From contig OZ242013.1 of the NCBI GenBank assembly GCA_965204805.1, forward strand, positions 2,605,232 through 2,669,231: DNA of 64,000 nucleotides, in the 5' to 3' direction. This stretch comes from Dehalococcoidia bacterium. Lineage in GTDB: Bacteria > Chloroflexota > Dehalococcoidia > Lucifugimonadales > UBA3495. Below are positions 9,668 to 52,957 of this stretch, one piece after another (position 1 is the stretch's first letter; each line of letters starts with the position of its first letter). The notes under the pieces were generated by a model. The model had not been told where the DNA came from. It did not search any database and saw nothing but the letters and a program-made list of their open reading frames with translations. The position numbers and the translations under genes are program-made.

Positions 9668-9800
9668 CGGTCCCATTGTCCAACCGGCGGCCCGCCCCAC
9701 GGACGAAAGGTAATGAAACGCAGCGAGACACGCATCCTGACCACTCACATCAAAATTGTCCTCTGCGCTTTTTGCAATCCAAGACATTAGGAGGATCCCG

Positions 9801-11348
9801 ATGAGATATAACTACATCGTAGTCGGCGGTGGTTCGGCGGGTTGTGTCATGGCGGCGCGGTTGTCAGAAGACCCGGACGTTACCGTTCTGTTATTGGAGG
9901 CGGGGCCGGACTATCCCGTGTTTGAGACTCTCCCCGACGACCTGAAGCTGGGCAACAACGTGTTCCTCTCCGCCTATGGCCCGCACAGTTGGGCCTACCG
10001 CGGCCACATGACCGACGAAATGACCGACCTGGAAATCCCCCGCGGCCGGGCCACCGGCGGCTCCAGCGCCATCAACGGGCAGGTGCTGTTGCGCGGCATA
10101 CCCGAGGACTACGACCGCTGGGCCGAGTGGGGCAACGACGAGTGGGGCTTCACCCAGTGCCTTCCCTACTTCAACAAGATGGAGACCGACCTCGATTTCG
10201 GCGGCGGCGACTTTCACGGCAACGACGGGCCGGTACCGGTGCGCCGCTACCCGCGCGCTGAGTGGATGCCCCACGCCGTGGCCTTCGAACAGGGCTGTAT
10301 CGCCGAGGGATACCCAGTCCACGAGGACCAGAACGACCCAGAGTCCACCGGCATATCACCCCGCGCCCGCAACACCATCGAAGGAATGCGGATGAGCAAC
10401 GCCCTCAACTACCTTGACCCGGCGCGACACCGCCTCAACCTCACCATCCGCGGCAGCGTCACGACCCATCGCGTCCTGTTTCAGGGCAGGCGCGCCGTGG
10501 GTGTGGAAGCCGAGAGCGGCGGAGAGATGTTCACCGTGGAGGGCGACCAGATCATTCTTTGCAGCGGCGCGGTGGCGTCGCCCCAGTTGCTGATGCTCTC
10601 CGGCGTCGGCCCAGCCGACCATCTGCAGAGCTTCGGCGTCGATGTGGTTCACGACTCGCCCGGCGTGGGCAAGAACCTGCGGGACCATCCGTCGGCGGCG
10701 GTCTTGTACCGGGCGAAAGGGGAGCGGCCCGACGTGCAGGCGCCGATGACCCAGGTCGGCCTGCGCTACACCGCTACTGATTCGCCTCTGCGCAACGATA
10801 TGCAGCTCCAGCCCATGCTGATGACCAGCGAGCACCGGCCGGCGCAGGTGGAAATCGACGACGACGCAAACTATATCGGCATGAACGCCAGCCTCCAGCT
10901 CGCGCTGGGACAGGGGGAGCTGACCCTTCAGTCCACCGACCCTCACGTCCAGCCCTACATCCACTACAACTACTACCGCGAGGAGGAGGACCTGCGCCGG
11001 ATGCGCGACGGGATTCGCCTCGGCGTCCGCGTTGCCGAGCAGCCGATGTACCAGGACCTTCTCGAGGAACGGGTAACCCCCACCGACGAGGATCTCGCCA
11101 CCAACGAGGCCCTGGACCAGTGGCTGCTGCGCAACTCAGGCACGTCGCACCACATCTCCGGCACCTGCAAAATGGGGCCGGACAACGACCCGATGACGGT
11201 GGTAGACCAGTACCTCAAGGTCAAGGGCGTGGAGAACCTGCGCGTAGCTGACGCCTCGGTCATGCCCGACTGCATCCGAGCCAACACCAACGCCACCACC
11301 ATCATGATCGCCGAGAAGCTGGCCGACTTCATCAAGACCGGGAAGTAG
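9801..11348 (+). CDS. GMC-family FAD oxidoreductase, paralog 2
   Basis: 'MRYNYIVVGGGSAGCVMAARLSEDPDVTVLLLEAGPD'. It is collinear and highly similar to 6802..8367 along its full length. I trimmed the start to ATG 9801, which follows TAGGAGGAT. Confidence 0.9.
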   Translation: MRYNYIVVGGGSAGCVMAARLSEDPDVTVLLLEAGPDYPVFETLPDDLKLGNNVFLSAYGPHSWAYRGHMTDEMTDLEIPRGRATGGSSAINGQVLLRGIPEDYDRWAEWGNDEWGFTQCLPYFNKMETDLDFGGGDFHGNDGPVPVRRYPRAEWMPHAVAFEQGCIAEGYPVHEDQNDPESTGISPRARNTIEGMRMSNALNYLDPARHRLNLTIRGSVTTHRVLFQGRRAVGVEAESGGEMFTVEGDQIILCSGAVASPQLLMLSGVGPADHLQSFGVDVVHDSPGVGKNLRDHPSAAVLYRAKGERPDVQAPMTQVGLRYTATDSPLRNDMQLQPMLMTSEHRPAQVEIDDDANYIGMNASLQLALGQGELTLQSTDPHVQPYIHYNYYREEEDLRRMRDGIRLGVRVAEQPMYQDLLEERVTPTDEDLATNEALDQWLLRNSGTSHHISGTCKMGPDNDPMTVVDQYLKVKGVENLRVADASVMPDCIRANTNATTIMIAEKLADFIKTGK

Positions 11349-29546: not shown

Positions 29547-31364
29547 TCAACGTTCCAGCAACTCCGCGTGGGTGCCGTAGTCGTGGATCCTGCCGCCGCT
29601 GATGGTGAAAATAACGTCCGCCGCCATGATGGTCGACAGCCGGTGCGCTATGACCAGCGTCGTGCGGCCCTGCACCAGCGGCGCCAGCGCCGATTGCAGC
29701 CGCCGCTCACTGGCCGTGTCCAGCGCCGATGTCGCCTCGTCCAAGATCAGGATGCGCGGCTGGTGCAGCAGGGTCCGGGCGATGGACAACCGTTGCCGCT
29801 CGCCGATGGACAGTCCGAACCCCCGCTCGCCCACCACGGTCCCATACCCGGCGGGCAGCTCCATGATTCGGTCGTGGATATACGCCGCCCTGGCCGCCGC
29901 CGTGACCTCTTCGCGCGTGGCGTCGGGCTTGGCGTAGCGCAGGTTCTCCTCGATGCTTGTCTGCATCAGGAAGCTCTCTTGAGTAACGAACCCCACCACA
30001 TCCGACAGGTCGGCCAGCCTCACCTGCCGCACGTCCCTCCCGTCGATGGACACCGATCCTTCCGTCACATCGTACAGCCGCGGCACCAAGGCTGCGATGG
30101 AGGTCTTGCCAGCGCCGCTGGGCCCCACGAAAGCCGCCAGTTGCCCCGGTTCGATGCGGAAGCTGACGCCGTCCAGCGCCCACTGCCGCGTCTGGCCGTT
30201 CTCTTGCAGGTCACCGGCACTCCCGTGGTATCTGTTGTTGTCCACCCGCACCGAGTCGAACACCACCTCTCCCAGGACCTTGTCGCGCTCCAGCCGTACC
30301 GCGTCGGGAGCGTCCGTAATCTCCTGCTCCAGGTCCAGGTAGCCGAATATCCGCTCGAACAGCGCCACCGACGACTGCAACTCCACCGATACTTGGAGCA
30401 GCCGCTCCACCGGACGGTACAGCTGCGCCTGCAACGCCGTGAACGCGATGATAGTCCCCGCCGTTGCCGCTCCCGCTCCGCCCATGAATATCAGGTAGCC
30501 CGCCAGCAGGTACACCAATGCCGGCGACAGCGTCAGGAAGGCGGACGCGGCGGCGTAGAAGCTCTGCGCGATCATCTGCTGCCGGACGGCGAAACGCGAC
30601 AGCTCCTCGTTGTGCCGCCGGAAGTGGTGCAGCTCGTCGTGCTGACGCCCGAACAGCTTGGCCAGCAGGATGCCGGGCAGAGACAGCGTTTCCTCGGTAA
30701 TCGCCGTCACTTGCGCCATCGAGCTTTGTGCGCTGGCCATTACCTCGCGCCGCTTGCGTCCCACCCAGCGCGTCAGCACGAAGAACACCGGCAGGATCGC
30801 CATTGCCACCAGAGTGAACTCCCACGAGAGAAACAGCATGGCCACCACCACGGCAATCAGCGCCGCGACGCTGGAAGCCGAGTCGGCGAAGGTGCTGGTT
30901 ACGACCGGCTCGATGCCGTTGATGTCGTGGGAAACCCGCGACTGCATCTCCCCGGTCCGGGTCCGCGCCAGGAAGCTCAGCGACATTCCCAGCAAGTGGT
31001 CATAGACCGCCTCCTGCAAGTTGCCGGTAACGTCCTGCCCCACCTTGCTGGTCAGGTAGGTCTGGGCAATGTTCAGCGCTCCCCCCGCTACGGCAATGGC
31101 CGCCATCAGCCCGGCGAGCAGCCACAGCAGCGTCAGGTTCAGCCCGCCGCCGGTGGGAAACAGCGCCGAGTCGAACACCTCCTTGACCAGCACCGGATTG
31201 GCCACGCCTGCAACGGAGTTGACCGCTATCAGCAGGCCAATTGCCGCTACCGGCAGCTTGTACGGCCCGAACAGACCGATGATCCTGCGCGGCAGGCCGT
31301 GCCGGCCCCGGTTGTAGAGTTCACGGTGATGGTGGGGTTCCGTCGAGTGCGCCATCACCCCCAT
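29547..31364 (-). CDS. ABC exporter, fused permease/ATPase half-transporter (MsbA/LmrCD-like), subunit 2
   Basis: Six-TM ABC_membrane region, then 'GPSGAGKTSIAALV', 'LSIGERQRLSIART' and 'ILILDEATSALD'. Confidence 0.9.
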   Translation of the reverse strand: MGVMAHSTEPHHHRELYNRGRHGLPRRIIGLFGPYKLPVAAIGLLIAVNSVAGVANPVLVKEVFDSALFPTGGGLNLTLLWLLAGLMAAIAVAGGALNIAQTYLTSKVGQDVTGNLQEAVYDHLLGMSLSFLARTRTGEMQSRVSHDINGIEPVVTSTFADSASSVAALIAVVVAMLFLSWEFTLVAMAILPVFFVLTRWVGRKRREVMASAQSSMAQVTAITEETLSLPGILLAKLFGRQHDELHHFRRHNEELSRFAVRQQMIAQSFYAAASAFLTLSPALVYLLAGYLIFMGGAGAATAGTIIAFTALQAQLYRPVERLLQVSVELQSSVALFERIFGYLDLEQEITDAPDAVRLERDKVLGEVVFDSVRVDNNRYHGSAGDLQENGQTRQWALDGVSFRIEPGQLAAFVGPSGAGKTSIAALVPRLYDVTEGSVSIDGRDVRQVRLADLSDVVGFVTQESFLMQTSIEENLRYAKPDATREEVTAAARAAYIHDRIMELPAGYGTVVGERGFGLSIGERQRLSIARTLLHQPRILILDEATSALDTASERRLQSALAPLVQGRTTLVIAHRLSTIMAADVIFTISGGRIHDYGTHAELLER

Positions 31365-31377
31365 CCATGTTTATTTG

Positions 31378-33399
31378 TCAGGGGCGCCCCGTCGTGGCGG
31401 GTTCCTGTTCTTGGGCTTCCAAGGGGACTATGCTGCCGTCCCTGTAAACCACGCCGTCCCGGAAGCGGGCCTCGATGCGTCCGCTGTCGTACTGCTCCCG
31501 ATAGAGGCGGGCATACAAGCAGTCGTTGGACAGCAACTCATCGTGAGGGCCCGACTCCACGATCTTGCCCTGGTCTACCACGTATATCACGTCTGCGGAC
31601 ATTATGGTGGAAAGGCGATGGGCGACGACCAGCGTGGTGCGTCCTTGCATCAGCGGTTGCAGCGCCGCCTGCACGTAGCGTTCGCTGGCCGTATCCAGCG
31701 ACGAGGTCGCTTCATCCAGAATCAGCACCCGCGGCTGATGCAGGATTACGCGGGCGATGGACAGTCTCTGCCTCTCGCCGCCCGACAGCCGGAAACCGCG
31801 CTCGCCGACGATGGTGTTATAGCCCTCGGGCAGTTCCATTATGCGGTCGTGTATGAAGGCCGCCTTGGCCGCATCCACTACTTCATAGCAGGAGGCGTGG
31901 GGATTGGCATACAGCAGGTTCCTCTCCATGCTGGCGTGGAACAGGTAGCTCTCCTGTGTGACATAGCCGATGATTTCCGAAAGGTCCGCCAGCCGGATTT
32001 CCCGCACGTCAATCCCGTCGATGCGCACCGACCCCTCGGTGACGTCGTACAGCCGAGGCACCAGCGATGCGATTGTCGTCTTGCCTGCGCCGCTGGGACC
32101 GACGAAGGCGGCCATCTGCCCCGGCGGGATTCGGAAGCTGACGCCGTCCAGCGCCCATTGCCGGTCGTCGTCAGCCGTCTCTCCTTCACGGGCGCCCAGC
32201 TCCTCAATCTCGCCGCGCCGGTAGTTGACCCGCACCGAGTCGAAGGTGATTTCCCCGGCAACCTTGCTTGCGGGCATCGGACGGGCGTTGGGTGAATCGG
32301 TGATTTCCTGCCTCATGTCCAGGTAACCGAAGATACGCTCGAACATAGCCAGGGACGATTGAAGCTCCACCGACACTTGCAGCAGCCGCCCCACCGGAAA
32401 GTACAGGCGGTTTTGCAGGACGGTGAATGCGATGACAGTGCCTGCGGTAATCACCGAAGGGCCGCCCCCGGCCATGATGTACCCCGCCAGCAGGTAGATG
32501 GCTACCGGGCTGGCGGAAAGGAAGGCCATCACCACCGCAAAGAAGGAATGCCCTATCATCTGCTGGCGCACCGTCAGGTCGGAAAGCTCCTGGTTGTGGC
32601 GGCGGAAGTTCGCCATCTCCTCGTGCTGCCGCCCGAAGAGCTTGGCCAGCATGATTCCCGAAACCGACAGCGTTTCCTGGGTGATGACCGTCATCTCGGC
32701 CATGGACTTCTGGGTCTTGGAAGTAATCTCCCGTCGCTTCCGGCCCACCCACTGGGCCATGAAGAAGTAGAGAGGCACCGTCGCCACGGCCACCAGGGTC
32801 AACTGCCACGACAGGAAGAGCATGGCGCCGAGGGTGCTGGCGAGGATGGCGATGTTGGCAATGGTGTCGCTGAGGGTGGTGGTCACTACTTGCTGGATAC
32901 CGCCCACGTCGTTGGACACCCGGGACTGTATCTCGCCGGTGCGGGTGCTGGTGAAGAACCGCAGCGACATCCCCTGAAGGTGAGCGTACACGGCGTCGCG
33001 CAGGTCGCGCATCACGTACTGCCCGACCTTGTTGGTCATGTAGGTCTGGAAGATGCCCATGGCCGCGTTGGCCGCGGCGATAGCCACCATCACGCCGCCT
33101 AGAATCCACAGCAGCCGGATGTCCGGGCCGCCGCTCCCCGGCGCTATTCCCAGCCCGTCGTCGAACACCACCTGTATGAGCATGGGGTTGACCACGCCTA
33201 GGCCCGAGGTGCACAGGATGAAGAACACCACGACGGCCACATGGAACTGATAGGGCCTGAAGAGCCACACCACGCGCGGCACCAAGTTGCCCCCGGCGTT
33301 TGTCGCCGGTTCCTGAGGTGGCAGTCCTCCAGTCAGCGGGAGACCGCGATGTGACGGAATCCTGACCATCGCGCTACTTCCGGCTTTCAGCCAACACAA
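31378..33399 (-). CDS. ABC exporter, fused permease/ATPase half-transporter, subunit 1
   Basis: 'GPSGAGKTTIASLV', 'LSGGERQRLSIARV' and 'VLILDEATSSLD'. The N-terminal start is uncertain (ATG 33369 is an alternative). It is adjacent to a paralog, so a heterodimer is likely. Confidence 0.9.
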   Translation of the reverse strand: MCWLKAGSSAMVRIPSHRGLPLTGGLPPQEPATNAGGNLVPRVVWLFRPYQFHVAVVVFFILCTSGLGVVNPMLIQVVFDDGLGIAPGSGGPDIRLLWILGGVMVAIAAANAAMGIFQTYMTNKVGQYVMRDLRDAVYAHLQGMSLRFFTSTRTGEIQSRVSNDVGGIQQVVTTTLSDTIANIAILASTLGAMLFLSWQLTLVAVATVPLYFFMAQWVGRKRREITSKTQKSMAEMTVITQETLSVSGIMLAKLFGRQHEEMANFRRHNQELSDLTVRQQMIGHSFFAVVMAFLSASPVAIYLLAGYIMAGGGPSVITAGTVIAFTVLQNRLYFPVGRLLQVSVELQSSLAMFERIFGYLDMRQEITDSPNARPMPASKVAGEITFDSVRVNYRRGEIEELGAREGETADDDRQWALDGVSFRIPPGQMAAFVGPSGAGKTTIASLVPRLYDVTEGSVRIDGIDVREIRLADLSEIIGYVTQESYLFHASMERNLLYANPHASCYEVVDAAKAAFIHDRIMELPEGYNTIVGERGFRLSGGERQRLSIARVILHQPRVLILDEATSSLDTASERYVQAALQPLMQGRTTLVVAHRLSTIMSADVIYVVDQGKIVESGPHDELLSNDCLYARLYREQYDSGRIEARFRDGVVYRDGSIVPLEAQEQEPATTGRP

Positions 33400-39100: not shown

Positions 39101-39327
39101 ACAGAGGGTTATGATAAGTAGGGAACTGCATCTACTCTACTGTAATATAATGCGGCCCGCCCCAGCCCAAAGCCCGGGACGGGCCGACGCATTTTGTTAC
39201 ATTCTAGCTTTCGAGATTGGCAGCAGCAAGGTGGACTCCACCCTCGCGTTGACCCTGTTCGCGCCCGTAACCTACAATCTCTGAAACCACCGGAACATCC
39301 CGAATCAGATAAGGAAAAGGGGGAACG

Positions 39328-40155
39328 ATGGCCCACGAGGACTATACCCACCCCGAATACCTAGTGGAACCCGAGTGGCTGGCCGCCCACATAAACGACG
39401 CCAACGTCGTGGTGGTGGACTGCGACGTGGACGCCGCCTACAACCGCGGTCACATCCCCGGCTCGGTGGTGGTGCCCGACAACTTCGAGAAAGACCCCGA
39501 CACCGGGCGGGTGCACCTGATGAACCCGGAGCAGTTCCAGGCCATGTGCCAGCATCTCGGTATCGGCGACGACACGCTGGTCATCAGCTACGACAACTCC
39601 CAGAGCCTCTACGCCGCCCGGCTCTGGTGGGCGCTAAATACCTACGGACACGGCAACGCCAAGGTGCTCAACGGCGGCTGGCGCGGCTGGATTACCGCCG
39701 GCAACGGCGTGGGACTGGAACGCCCGGCTCCGGCCCAAGGTGTGACCTTCACCCCCAACCGCGACGAGTCCCTGCTGGTGAAGGTGGACGAACTGAAGGA
39801 AGCCTGCAACCTCGACGATGCCGTCATCTGGGACGTCCGAAGCGACGGCGAATGGGACGGCAGCGAGCCTCGCGGGAACCAGCGGGCGGGACACATACCC
39901 GGCGCGGTCCACCTGGAATGGTTCAACGTGATGGACCGCCAGACCCACCGCTTCAGGCCCGCCAGCGAAATCCGGCAGCTTCTCGCCGACCACGGGATCA
40001 CGCCCGACAAGAATGTTTACACCTATTGACAGGGCGGCATCCGTGCGGCGCACGGCGTGTTCGTCCTGCAACTGGTGGGCTACAACCAGACCAAGAACTA
40101 CGATGCCTCCATGGGAGAGTGGGCCAACCGCGACGATACCTCGCTGACGCTCTGA
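39328..40155 (+). CDS. two-domain rhodanese/thiosulfate sulfurtransferase with an in-frame TGA (40027..40029) at the catalytic Cys position: candidate selenoprotein, or a nonsense pseudogene
   Basis: The 233-aa ORF ends '...DKNVYTY*'. The same frame continues 'QGGIRAAHGVFVLQLVGYNQTKNYDASMGEWANRDDTSLTL*' to TGA 40153. Joined, it gives the C-x-x-G-x-R active-site loop and a normal ~275-aa length. Confidence 0.6.
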
Positions 40156-40171
40156 GCATCCTCCCCAAAAT

Positions 40172-40207
40172 CCCCTCCCCATCAGGGGGAGGGTCAGGGT
40201 GGGGGTG
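40172..40207. repeat. REP-like element family 1, copy G
   Basis: CCCCTCCCCATCAGGGGGAGGGTCAGGGTGGGGGTG, between the convergent rhodanese and kinase genes. Confidence 0.7.
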
Positions 40208-41270: not shown

Positions 41271-41765
41271 TCAGCAGCCGTACTGCCCCTCAAGGGGGCC
41301 CAGGAACTCCACCCGCTCGCCCGGCGACAGTCCGGCCCGCGCCCACTCTCCGGCGTTCAACTCCAGCACGTATTGGGCGGGCAGGGGCGACTGCGCCTTT
41401 GGGATCTCCTCGTTGCTTGCATTGGGCGGCGGGGTTGGCACGTCGGCGGCCACATCAATCAGGCGGCATTGGCCGTCAATCCAGATGATGTCCAGGGGGA
41501 AGCGCATATCCTTCATCCAGAATTGCAGCGGCTGCTCCTCCTCGAACAAGAACAGCATCCCGGCGTCCTGAGCCATGGTCTCACGGCCCGACAGTCCCTG
41601 CTGCCGCTCATCGCGCGTCACCGCCACATCGACAGCATAGACGACATCGCCGCCGATGCGCACCGATGCCACGCCCGGCGAGTCCGTCGGCTCCGGGGCC
41701 GCCGTCAGCCCTCCGCCACCGCAGGACAGCAGGGTCAGCAGCAACAGGATTAGCGTAACCGGCAT
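41271..41765 (-). CDS. DUF192-domain lipoprotein
   Basis: Signal 'MPVTLILLLLTLLSCGG', then 'GLSGRETMAQDAGMLFLFEEEQPLQFWMKDMRFPLDIIWID'. Confidence 0.75.
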   Translation of the reverse strand: MPVTLILLLLTLLSCGGGGLTAAPEPTDSPGVASVRIGGDVVYAVDVAVTRDERQQGLSGRETMAQDAGMLFLFEEEQPLQFWMKDMRFPLDIIWIDGQCRLIDVAADVPTPPPNASNEEIPKAQSPLPAQYVLELNAGEWARAGLSPGERVEFLGPLEGQYGC

Positions 41766-41881
41766 CGGACAATCCCCGCAGTCATCGCCCGCCATGTTAT
41801 CTCACTGGACGCATCCCGCTCAACCCGGTGCTTCCGGTTGACGAATCCGTCGGGGCTGGGGTAGGCTTGCCCCGTACTCGC

Positions 41882-51724: not shown

Positions 51725-52957
51725 ATGCTTACCTTGACCGATGACGCCACGTTCCCGCCGCCGATAACTCATGGCCCGCTGGACGGGGTGAAGGTGCTGG
51801 ACCTGAGCGAGGACATCGCCGGGTCTTTCTGCGCCCGCCTGCTGGCCGACTACGGGGCCGAGGTGCTGAAGCTGGAGCCGCCCGCCGGGGCCGCCCTGCG
51901 GCGGATGCCGCCCTTCTTCGACGACGATCCGCACCCGGAGAAGAGCCTGTTCTTCCTGGCTATGAACCTGAACAAGAAGTCTGCGACGCTGAACCTGAAG
52001 ACCGCCGCCGGGAGAGAGTTGTTCCGGGAGCTGATTCCTCATGTGGACGTAGTGGTGGAGAGCTACCGGCCGGGGTATCTGGCTGACCTGGAACTGGGAT
52101 ACAAGGCGCTTGAAGCCATCAACCCCGGGCTGGTAATGACTTCTATCACTCCCTTCGGGCAGACGGGTCCTTATAGCCAGTATGCCGGAGAGGAGATAGT
52201 CAACTACGCCATGGGGCTGATTATGAGCATCAGCGGGCTACAGGACCGCGAGCCGCTGAAGCATGGCGGGTTCCAGGCGCAGTACGAGGGCGGACTGAAC
52301 GGCGCGGCGGCCACGGCCATGGCCCTGTTCATGCAGGGCAACACCGGCGAGGGGCAGCATATCGACGTGTCGGTCACCGAGTGCGTGGCCTCGACGATGA
52401 TGGCGACCCAGTCCATGTATCCCTTCATCGGGGGGACACAGCCACGGCGACGGCCTTCGGGCAGCAACTTCGGGCATCCGATGGCGTGCAAGGACGGCTG
52501 GATCATCGTGCAGACCGGCGGCGGAGCAACCTGGGAGACCATCGCCAACTTCTTCCGCGACCCTCGGCTGCACGAGGAGCGGTTCACCGACACCGCGCAG
52601 CGCAACCGCAACGGCGAGGAGCTGGACCGCATCGTGCTGGAGTCCATCGGCGAGCGGGGGAAGTGGGAGCTGTTCACCGAGGCGGCCACCTCGCGGATGC
52701 TTTTCGGTCTGGTGCAGACGCCGTCGGAGCTGGCCGAGTGCCCGCAGCTTGAGTCGCGGGACTTCTACCGGGAGATTGAGCATCCGGTCATCGGGAAGAT
52801 CAAGGTGCCGGCGGTTCTGTTCAACCTCTCCCTTACGCCCTACCAGTATGTTGGCCCGGCCCCGACGCTGGGCCAGCACAACCGCGAGATATACGTGGAC
52901 GGCCTGGGCCTCACTCCCAAGGACCTGACCGTGCTTCGGCAGACGGATGCTATCTGA
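51725..52957 (+). CDS. CaiB/BaiF family III CoA-transferase
   Basis: 'GPLDGVKVLDLSEDIAGSFCARLLADYGAEVLKLEPP'. Confidence 0.85.
   Translation: MLTLTDDATFPPPITHGPLDGVKVLDLSEDIAGSFCARLLADYGAEVLKLEPPAGAALRRMPPFFDDDPHPEKSLFFLAMNLNKKSATLNLKTAAGRELFRELIPHVDVVVESYRPGYLADLELGYKALEAINPGLVMTSITPFGQTGPYSQYAGEEIVNYAMGLIMSISGLQDREPLKHGGFQAQYEGGLNGAAATAMALFMQGNTGEGQHIDVSVTECVASTMMATQSMYPFIGGTQPRRRPSGSNFGHPMACKDGWIIVQTGGGATWETIANFFRDPRLHEERFTDTAQRNRNGEELDRIVLESIGERGKWELFTEAATSRMLFGLVQTPSELAECPQLESRDFYREIEHPVIGKIKVPAVLFNLSLTPYQYVGPAPTLGQHNREIYVDGLGLTPKDLTVLRQTDAI

Follow-up and report, generated by a model that had tools for sequence, protein, structure and literature searches.

Rhodaneses that carry selenocysteine (Sec) in place of the catalytic cysteine are not new to the literature on marine microorganisms. 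The Sargasso Sea survey of 2005 introduced a 'Rhodanese-related sulfurtransferase, COG2897' as a new selenoprotein family with three sequences (PMC1088965), and the Global Ocean Sampling survey of 2008 listed eight sequences of a 'Rhodanase-related sulfurtransferase, cd01449', with 3,367 in the last column (PMC2398784), a figure taken here to be the number of Cys homologs. More recently, a 2026 review described a two-domain Sec rhodanese-related sulfurtransferase as 'form 4', having the motif UxxG (PMC13188914) and MCY3690685.1 as its exemplar. Here we analyze a stretch of 64,000 nucleotides from a Dehalococcoidia bacterium (hereafter the window), in which the gene for a two-domain rhodanese is interrupted by an in-frame TGA at 40027-40029. 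We conclude that this TGA is very probably a Sec codon and that the gene encodes a genuine 275-residue Sec-rhodanese of the thiosulfate/3-mercaptopyruvate sulfurtransferase (TST/MST) class (COG2897/cd01449). A sequence-only reading of the window had mentioned that Sec-for-Cys rhodanese-type proteins were reported in marine metagenome surveys, and the two surveys cited above contain just such proteins. We therefore assign the window rhodanese to a selenoprotein family that has been known since 2005. Our additions are incremental: the assignment to a lineage, the breadth of the family, the selection acting on the part of the gene beyond TGA, and two classes of hairpin.

The likeness to the published Sec rhodanese-related family extends to the PF00581 domain, the two-domain COG2897/cd01449 organization, UGA at the catalytic Cys, the U-x-x-G motif (U-Q-G-G here), marine origin and the abundance of Cys homologs. 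Nothing is demonstrably different between the two in a comparison made by architecture, Sec position and motif. The published entries come without a lineage, a description of the selenocysteine insertion sequence (SECIS) or a clade survey; what is added here is the placement in SAR202/Dehalococcoidia and the two hairpin classes. The Cys-type two-domain rhodaneses of solved structure (Thermus thermophilus 1UAR, Azotobacter vinelandii RhdA 1E0C, mycobacterial SseA/CysA 3HZU and 3AAX) can be aligned with the window protein over the full length (E=1.6e-42 to 8e-33), at an identity of roughly 35-45% as judged by eye from the alignments. They have the same domain order, the same C-x-x-x-x-R-[SA]-[SA]-H loop (CRIAERSSH in 1UAR, UQGGIRAAH here) and the same NYDGSxxEW segment, but their nucleophile is Cys, whereas the window protein has a UGA-encoded residue at this position. 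The other Sec-rhodaneses, namely form 1 (UxxS), form 2 (COG0607, UxxG), form 3 (rhodanese_LYCAU, NF041203, CxU) and form 5 (TsoB), are rhodanese-domain selenoproteins too, but they either have a single domain or are fusions, and their motifs differ, whereas the window protein is of the two-domain TST/MST type. The match between NF041203 and the window protein is weak (35 bits, with a cutoff of 115).

A two-domain rhodanese gene with TGA at the catalytic position

The open reading frame (ORF) that begins with ATG at 39328 runs for 233 codons to the in-frame TGA, beyond which the same frame remains open for another 41 codons (QGGIRAAHGVFVLQLVGYNQTKNYDASMGEWANRDDTSLTL) up to a second TGA. These coordinates are identical to those given by the sequence-only reading. 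The gene, located on the plus strand, consists of the following parts:

39328..40026, plus strand: codons 1-233, covering the inactive rhodanese domain at the N-terminus and the greater part of the catalytic one at the C-terminus; the last residues are DKNVYTY
40027..40029, plus strand: TGA, putative Sec codon for residue 234 in the motif U-Q-G-G-I-R, assigned by alignment to the catalytic Cys and by conservation in orthologs
40030..40152, plus strand: tail of 41 codons (QGGIRAAHG...NYDASMGEWANRDDTSLTL), supplying the rest of the active-site loop and of the catalytic domain
40153..40155, plus strand: TGA, true terminal stop, from translation of the frame

With the first TGA read as a residue, the 275-residue product contains two tandem rhodanese stretches (PF00581, E=1.5e-36; Pfam) and matches two-domain sulfurtransferases from end to end, in keeping with the length that had been expected for the restored protein. 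The alignment with 1UAR spans residues 6-267 (E=1.6e-42), that with 1E0C has an E-value of 3e-37, and full-length alignments were also obtained with 3HZU and 1URH. In both the 1UAR and 1E0C alignments, TGA falls exactly into the column of the catalytic Cys. The tail, QGGIRAAHG...NYDASMGEWAN, matches CRIAERSSH...NYDGSWTEWGN of 1UAR, so that the loop UQGGIR lies opposite CRIAER. Thus, the earlier suggestion that TGA takes the place of the catalytic Cys and that the tail is the missing end of the catalytic domain is borne out by solved structures. Since the tail holds the rest of the catalytic domain and TGA marks the position of the nucleophile, a product of 233 residues would have neither the nucleophile nor the end of the fold. 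The codon-usage score is 0.68 for codons 1-233 and equal in the tail.

Conservation of TGA and breadth of the family

All but two of the 120 best database matches (96-67% identity) are called as proteins of 232-237 residues, the two others having 267 and 200 residues. Query coverage is ~85% (73% in one case), and the aligned relatives terminate at Y-[T/A]-Y in 29 cases out of 29. At the DNA level, a scan limited to one genome per species yielded 80 orthologous loci, in which tblastn matches continue through residues 1-275. Of these loci, 79 are titled as Dehalococcoidia, SAR202-cluster or Chloroflexota metagenome-assembled genomes (MAGs) and one only as 'uncultured bacterium'; most are marine or sponge-associated. 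Together with the window gene and a second copy at locus L060, the set comprises 83 gene copies (82 distinct sequences, 65-96% protein identity). Whether orthologs have Cys or TGA at the site had been put forward as a check by the sequence-only reading, and the answer is unequivocal: TGA is present in 83/83 copies, while TAA, TAG, TGC and TGT are found in 0/83. The hairpin core that follows TGA is replaced in one subclade, as described below. The terminal stop of the orthologs varies freely (TAG in 36, TAA in 23 and TGA in 18; n=77). Two genomes have duplicated genes. In L060, two rhodanese genes lie in tandem 944 bp apart, with TGAs at 9747-9749 and 10691-10693 and the motif U-Q-A-G-L-R in the upstream copy, and MAG ALOHA_A2.5_21 has copies on two contigs (L035, L036). 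Both copies keep TGA and the hairpin core.

Six further loci, which represent five more distant homolog sequences of 32-47% identity, likewise have TGA followed by a conserved tail of 40-42 residues; their contigs have a GC content of 34-57%. The gene next downstream of the distant Sec-rhodanese is arylsulfotransferase-like in one of these loci (L088:6870-8024) and has a metallo-beta-lactamase fold in another (L090:6838-7476). Going by the Pfam name alone, the L090 gene might encode a persulfide dioxygenase, and both neighbors may represent sulfur-metabolism contexts without a counterpart at the SAR202 loci.

To assess the breadth of the family, the 233-residue part was searched against ~15 billion proteins clustered at 50% identity, each cluster being represented by one sequence, and the best 150 matches were scored. 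Of these representatives, 99 have Cys at the catalytic position, one each has Ser or Gly, 29 terminate precisely there and the other 20 are fragments. No fewer than 29 separate clusters at 50% identity therefore contain gene calls that stop at the site, and five were confirmed on DNA by the presence of TGA and the conserved tail. In a rough neighbor-joining tree, the SAR202 clade is nested within a pure stop-at-site clade of 14 leaves, and the other stop-at-site forms are interspersed among Cys forms. This pattern suggests repeated Sec/Cys exchange in the rhodanese family, although the tree is too crude to lean on. In public records, the Sec-rhodanese appears as a 'sulfurtransferase' or 'thiosulfate/3-mercaptopyruvate sulfurtransferase' of 232-237 residues (MCI0860081.1, HIN06229.1 and MCH8279673.1, the last being a 233-residue 'sulfurtransferase [Chloroflexota bacterium]'). 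An exact look-up of the 233-residue products of L069 and L052 returned no record in the protein collection searched.

Indirect evidence for decoding of selenocysteine in the lineage

Three indirect lines of evidence support the ability of this lineage to decode Sec. The first comes from BSepDB, which admits only species with SelA, SelB and SelD detected by tblastn; it lists both Dehalococcoidia bacterium UBA1141, with 49 selenoprotein genes, and isolate 10f4566d-ab44-49ae-b774-fc9f760c6436, with 46, among the richest selenoproteomes (PMC13326102). Both UBA1141 (L054) and this isolate (L043) carry the TGA-rhodanese. The second line is a gene revealed by a codon-usage scan of the flanks in five ortholog genomes, ~3 kb downstream of the rhodanese TGA. 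It reads ...MIHATAE-TGA-GSCTSCSVHDAM..., or HATAE-TGA-GSCTSC around the TGA. The profile NF041046, 'UGSC family (seleno)protein', matches it over the full length with 111 bits (E=3.7e-32; the cutoff is 125), and the TGA coincides with the U of UGSC. The five loci are L023:13635-14267, L027:13367-13942, L029 (TGA 13691), L030 (TGA 13688) and L032:13492-14124; the window does not contain this gene. The third line is internal to the window, where the codon-usage scan picked out just two in-frame TGAs that have coding signal both before and after them, one in the rhodanese gene and the other in a gene for an ABC exporter. Other in-frame TGAs in the flanks (...RREF-TGA-TMKYAYPC; L005, L014, L015) were judged from sequence to reflect adjacent genes in the same frame and were not counted.

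Elsewhere in the window TGA is a genuine stop, as had been pointed out before. Clean-coding genes at 31378-33399 (minus strand), 41271-41795 (minus strand) and 51725-52957 (plus strand) end in TGA, and so does the rhodanese gene itself, both in the window and in 18/77 orthologs, which rules out a global reassignment of the codon. Window ORFs of at least 90 residues (greedy choice) end in TAG in 28 cases, in TGA in 26 and in TAA in 13, and in many of those ending in TGA the GC-position pattern is non-coding. Real genes of this genome (60% GC) thus appear to favor TAG as their stop, a preference that might be linked to the heavy use of UGA for Sec.

Comparative evidence reveals read-through rather than the identity of the inserted residue. 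UGA might be recoded to a residue other than Sec: to Cys via a Cys-charged tRNA-Sec-like tRNA, or to Trp by near-cognate read-through. Work on 'facile recoding of selenocysteine' has reportedly described a tRNA(Cys) route of decoding. Cys at this position would be fully functional. Nevertheless, we find this explanation unlikely. Genomes of the lineage are reported to have SelA, SelB and SelD along with 46-49 selenoprotein genes, and an established selenoprotein family (UGSC) is present in ortholog-bearing genomes. In addition, Trp would mean a dead enzyme, and maintaining UGA with a hairpin for the sake of a mere Cys has no evident advantage over TGC. Sec is by far the better candidate for the residue at this site.

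Selection on the tail

The sequence-only reading had considered that further disabling mutations in the 3' segment would speak against recoding. We observed none: in every locus the tail is in frame, conserved throughout and free of frameshifts and stops. The ratio of nonsynonymous to synonymous substitution rates (dN/dS) is 0.129 in the tail versus 0.141 in the 75 codons upstream, and within tail codons +11 to +41 dN/dS is 0.09 at a saturated synonymous rate (dS 1.56).

This constraint is hard to accommodate if TGA is a conserved true stop, such that the 233-residue product lacking the catalytic residue acts as a regulatory or binding rhodanese-like protein, and the conservation downstream is due to an RNA element or a separate peptide. 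It is true that inactive rhodanese domains exist in nature, that a regulatory signal for read-through or termination could in principle underlie the exclusive choice of TGA, and that the hairpin could be an attenuator. However, the constraint is on amino acids and extends across the 41 codons, including the part from +11 to +41, and the tail supplies precisely what the 233-residue product lacks, namely the active-site loop together with the final strands and helix. There is no Met at the start of the tail (by a tabulation of Met positions alone, the first one is at tail residue 13 or 28), and the 99 Cys homologs read on past the site. We therefore consider a conserved true stop very unlikely. 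A further alternative is a pseudogene, in which an ordinary Cys-rhodanese was recently disabled by a nonsense change from TGC/TGT to TGA, as the sequence-only reading had allowed, or in which the TGA is an error of sequencing. A single transversion would suffice and both gene callers and public records do treat the gene as a 233-residue protein, but the TGA conserved in all copies and in distant homologs, the intact tail under purifying selection and the exact copy of the 233-residue N-terminal product encoded by the independent assembly L001 effectively exclude it and indicate that the tail is translated.

A probable SECIS element

In the E. coli fdhF paradigm, the bacterial SECIS is a stem-loop within the coding sequence 3' of UGA, with a G in the apical loop. 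Downstream of the rhodanese TGA, we distinguish two hairpin registers:

40041..40055, plus strand: hairpin core (stem 1), CCGUGC 40041-46, loop GGC 40047-49, GCACGG 40050-55; supported by the fold and by codon constraint
40047..40065, plus strand: alternative register, G21-G28 paired with U32-C39, loop GCG; imperfect in the window (C.U mismatch)

The core, its GGC loop and the unpaired C at 40056 agree with what the sequence-only reading had described, but its estimate of the extent was too short: the minimum-energy stem reaches down over the UGA itself (40027-40070). The 64-nt fold has a free energy of -32.1 kcal/mol compared to -23.8 +/- 2.9 for shuffled sequences (z=-2.83), and 2/200 shuffles were as stable. 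The element resembles the fdhF-type SECIS in being a stem-loop of the coding sequence 3' of UGA with a G-containing apical loop ~20 nt downstream. It differs in its unrelated sequence and in its loop of only 3 nt (GGC), carried by a 6-bp stem rich in G+C.

Further evidence comes from the nucleotides themselves. For codons +1 to +10, dS is 0.33, as opposed to 1.56 in the remaining tail and 1.22 upstream, meaning that synonymous change in the 10 codons after TGA is suppressed ~4-5-fold. Codon choice at individual positions is as follows:

Tyr -1 (40024..40026, plus strand): TAT in 82/82; Tyr elsewhere in the gene is TAC by 63:7 and 60:12
Arg +5: CGT in 66/82, versus CGT in 6/75 at codon -18
Ala +6: GCG in 80/81; GCC is preferred elsewhere in the gene
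Ala +7: GCG in 82/82; GCC is preferred elsewhere in the gene
His +8: CAC in 64/64

The distant homologs have nearly identical nucleotides after TGA, UGACA[A/G]G..GG.AU.CGUGCGGCGCACG, even at 34% GC, and the CGUGC-GGC-GCACG core is present in all five of their sequences, including those from contigs of 34-43% GC. In stem 1, 89.8% of cells are paired and there is one compensatory change, from G-C to U-A (L080).

A subclade of ~14-16 orthologs, which has Asn-Ser instead of His-Gly at +8/+9, has lost the CCGUGC/GCACGG stem 1. These sequences fold GGCGAACA-GUG-UGUUCGUC, ~8 nt farther downstream of UGA, and this is the only hairpin left there. The subclade (L035, L036, L039, L040, L043, L046, L054, L055, L058, L062, L064, L068, L070, L072, L075, L082) includes both of the BSepDB-listed selenoprotein-rich genomes, L043 and L054. 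The shift itself is an observation; in functional terms, it looks like the relocation of a SECIS within the coding sequence.

In the most likely mechanism, the hairpin, with its GGC loop 18-20 nt past the UGA, serves as a bacterial SECIS: it would recruit the SelB.GTP.Sec-tRNA(Sec) complex, Sec would be inserted in place of termination, and translation would run on to the stop at 40153-40155. By analogy with the double displacement of rhodaneses, the Sec selenolate in the U-Q-G-G-I-R cradle would accept sulfane sulfur from a donor, giving a persulfide-like Se-S intermediate, and the sulfur would then be handed to an acceptor. Sequence comparisons lend recoding strong, though indirect, support; the actual insertion of Sec, the binding of SelB to the hairpin, and the chemistry, substrates and physiological role of the enzyme are inferred.

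Several results weigh against the Sec interpretation. Neither the window (64 kb) nor the flanks of the orthologs (~1.6 Mb) yielded selA, selB, selD or tRNA-Sec in a search by tblastn with E. coli SelA, SelB and SelD, supplemented with ARAGORN, a result that at ~20 kb per genome is uninformative. NCBIfam has no selenoprotein-specific model scoring above cutoff for the rhodanese, nor for the ABC protein, and Rfam, at both gathering and E-value thresholds, gave no relevant family. Covariation is not significant in either register, the score of stem 1 being matched by 92/500 shuffles. Moreover, stem 1 is not universal, and a single SECIS structure cannot be drawn for all orthologs. The lack of covariation is explained by the near-invariance of the region, and so the RNA argument rests on the suppression of synonymous change and on conservation across GC backgrounds. 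Taken by its position, stability and nucleotide constraint, and not by covariation, the hairpin is a probable SECIS.

A second in-frame TGA in an ABC exporter gene

The other TGA with coding signal on both sides belongs to the following gene:

31355-29409, minus strand: ABC exporter (PF00664 and PF00005), with in-frame TGA 29549-29547, tail 29546-29412 and hairpin at ~29536-29520

Here TGA interrupts the sequence ...GTHAELLER-TGA-GIYTRLYAEQYNEGRIEAYCADGVV... (the same tail is also given as GIYTRLYAEQYNEGRIEAYCADGVVLTDGA). The 120 best relatives (92-77% identity), called as proteins of ~602 residues, all end at the TGA site. Five distinct sequences (window, L028 and L171-L176, with L173-L176 identical over the region shown) read CGT-TGA-GGC, and in all five a perfect hairpin, CUCGGC-UGUA[C/U]-GCCGAG, begins 11 nt after the UGA codon. 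The tail is conserved over 44-45 residues (in L028 the contig ends after 38), with dN/dS of 0.16. Homologs that have a sense codon at the site encode Gly, Glu, Asp or Asn, and one encodes Cys. Because these homologs vary at the site, Sec would occupy a variable, non-catalytic position. An exporter combining transmembrane and nucleotide-binding domains (TMD-NBD) is absent from both the selenoprotein list of the 2026 review and NCBIfam, and a metagenome scan for orthologs of the tail returned none, its matches being swamped by generic ABC motifs. Going by sequence, the ABC exporter is possibly an uncatalogued selenoprotein, and it may be the more novel item of the window than the rhodanese.

The two genes have one more feature in common. 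The codon 5' of each recoded TGA (40024-40026 and, on the minus strand, 29550-29552) is frozen on a T-ending, otherwise disfavored codon: Tyr TAT in 82/82 rhodanese orthologs, although TAC prevails ~5-9:1 elsewhere, and Arg CGT in every ABC ortholog seen. The freezing might be an effect of sequence context on the recoding of UGA.

Genomic surroundings of the rhodanese gene

The rhodanese gene looks monocistronic. An acetyl-CoA-synthetase-like gene lies upstream on the opposite strand and a PfkB-family kinase gene converges from downstream; none of the adjoining genes indicates a particular sulfur or selenium pathway. The purine-rich AAGGGGG directly precedes the ATG, and farther upstream there is a promoter candidate:

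39249..39278, plus strand: candidate promoter of sigma-70-like type (TTGACC-18 nt-TACAAT), located ~50 nt before the ATG, by consensus match only

It agrees with the consensus at 10/12 positions (one site versus 0.3 expected in shuffles). Between the convergent rhodanese and PfkB genes, at 40170-40206, there is a G+C-rich inverted repeat, CCCCTCCCC-ATCA-GGGGGAGGG; it has no T-run and was not among the calls of the terminator scan, and weak sub-threshold Rfam matches around it were dismissed as chance.

Implications

One further idea, which we put forward as doubtful, is that the family has an unusually deeply conserved SECIS of its own (CGUGC-GGC-GCACG), retained from 34 to 60% GC and down to ~32% identity, and relocated in one subclade through coupled His-to-Asn and Gly-to-Ser codon replacements, and that the enzyme may serve selenium trafficking (to SelD). 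In a lineage with ~46-49 selenoproteins, such a relay would pass selenium to SelD instead of performing ordinary sulfur transfer, which is speculation. If true, the relocation would provide a natural example of a SECIS moving inside a coding sequence.

Genomes of this kind are dense in recoded genes, as the window shows with two in 64 kb, and SAR202 is an abundant lineage of the deep ocean. All the records that we looked up present the rhodanese as a 233-residue protein without its catalytic residue. Consequently, reconstructions of SAR202 metabolism include a defective enzyme and overlook a need for selenium.

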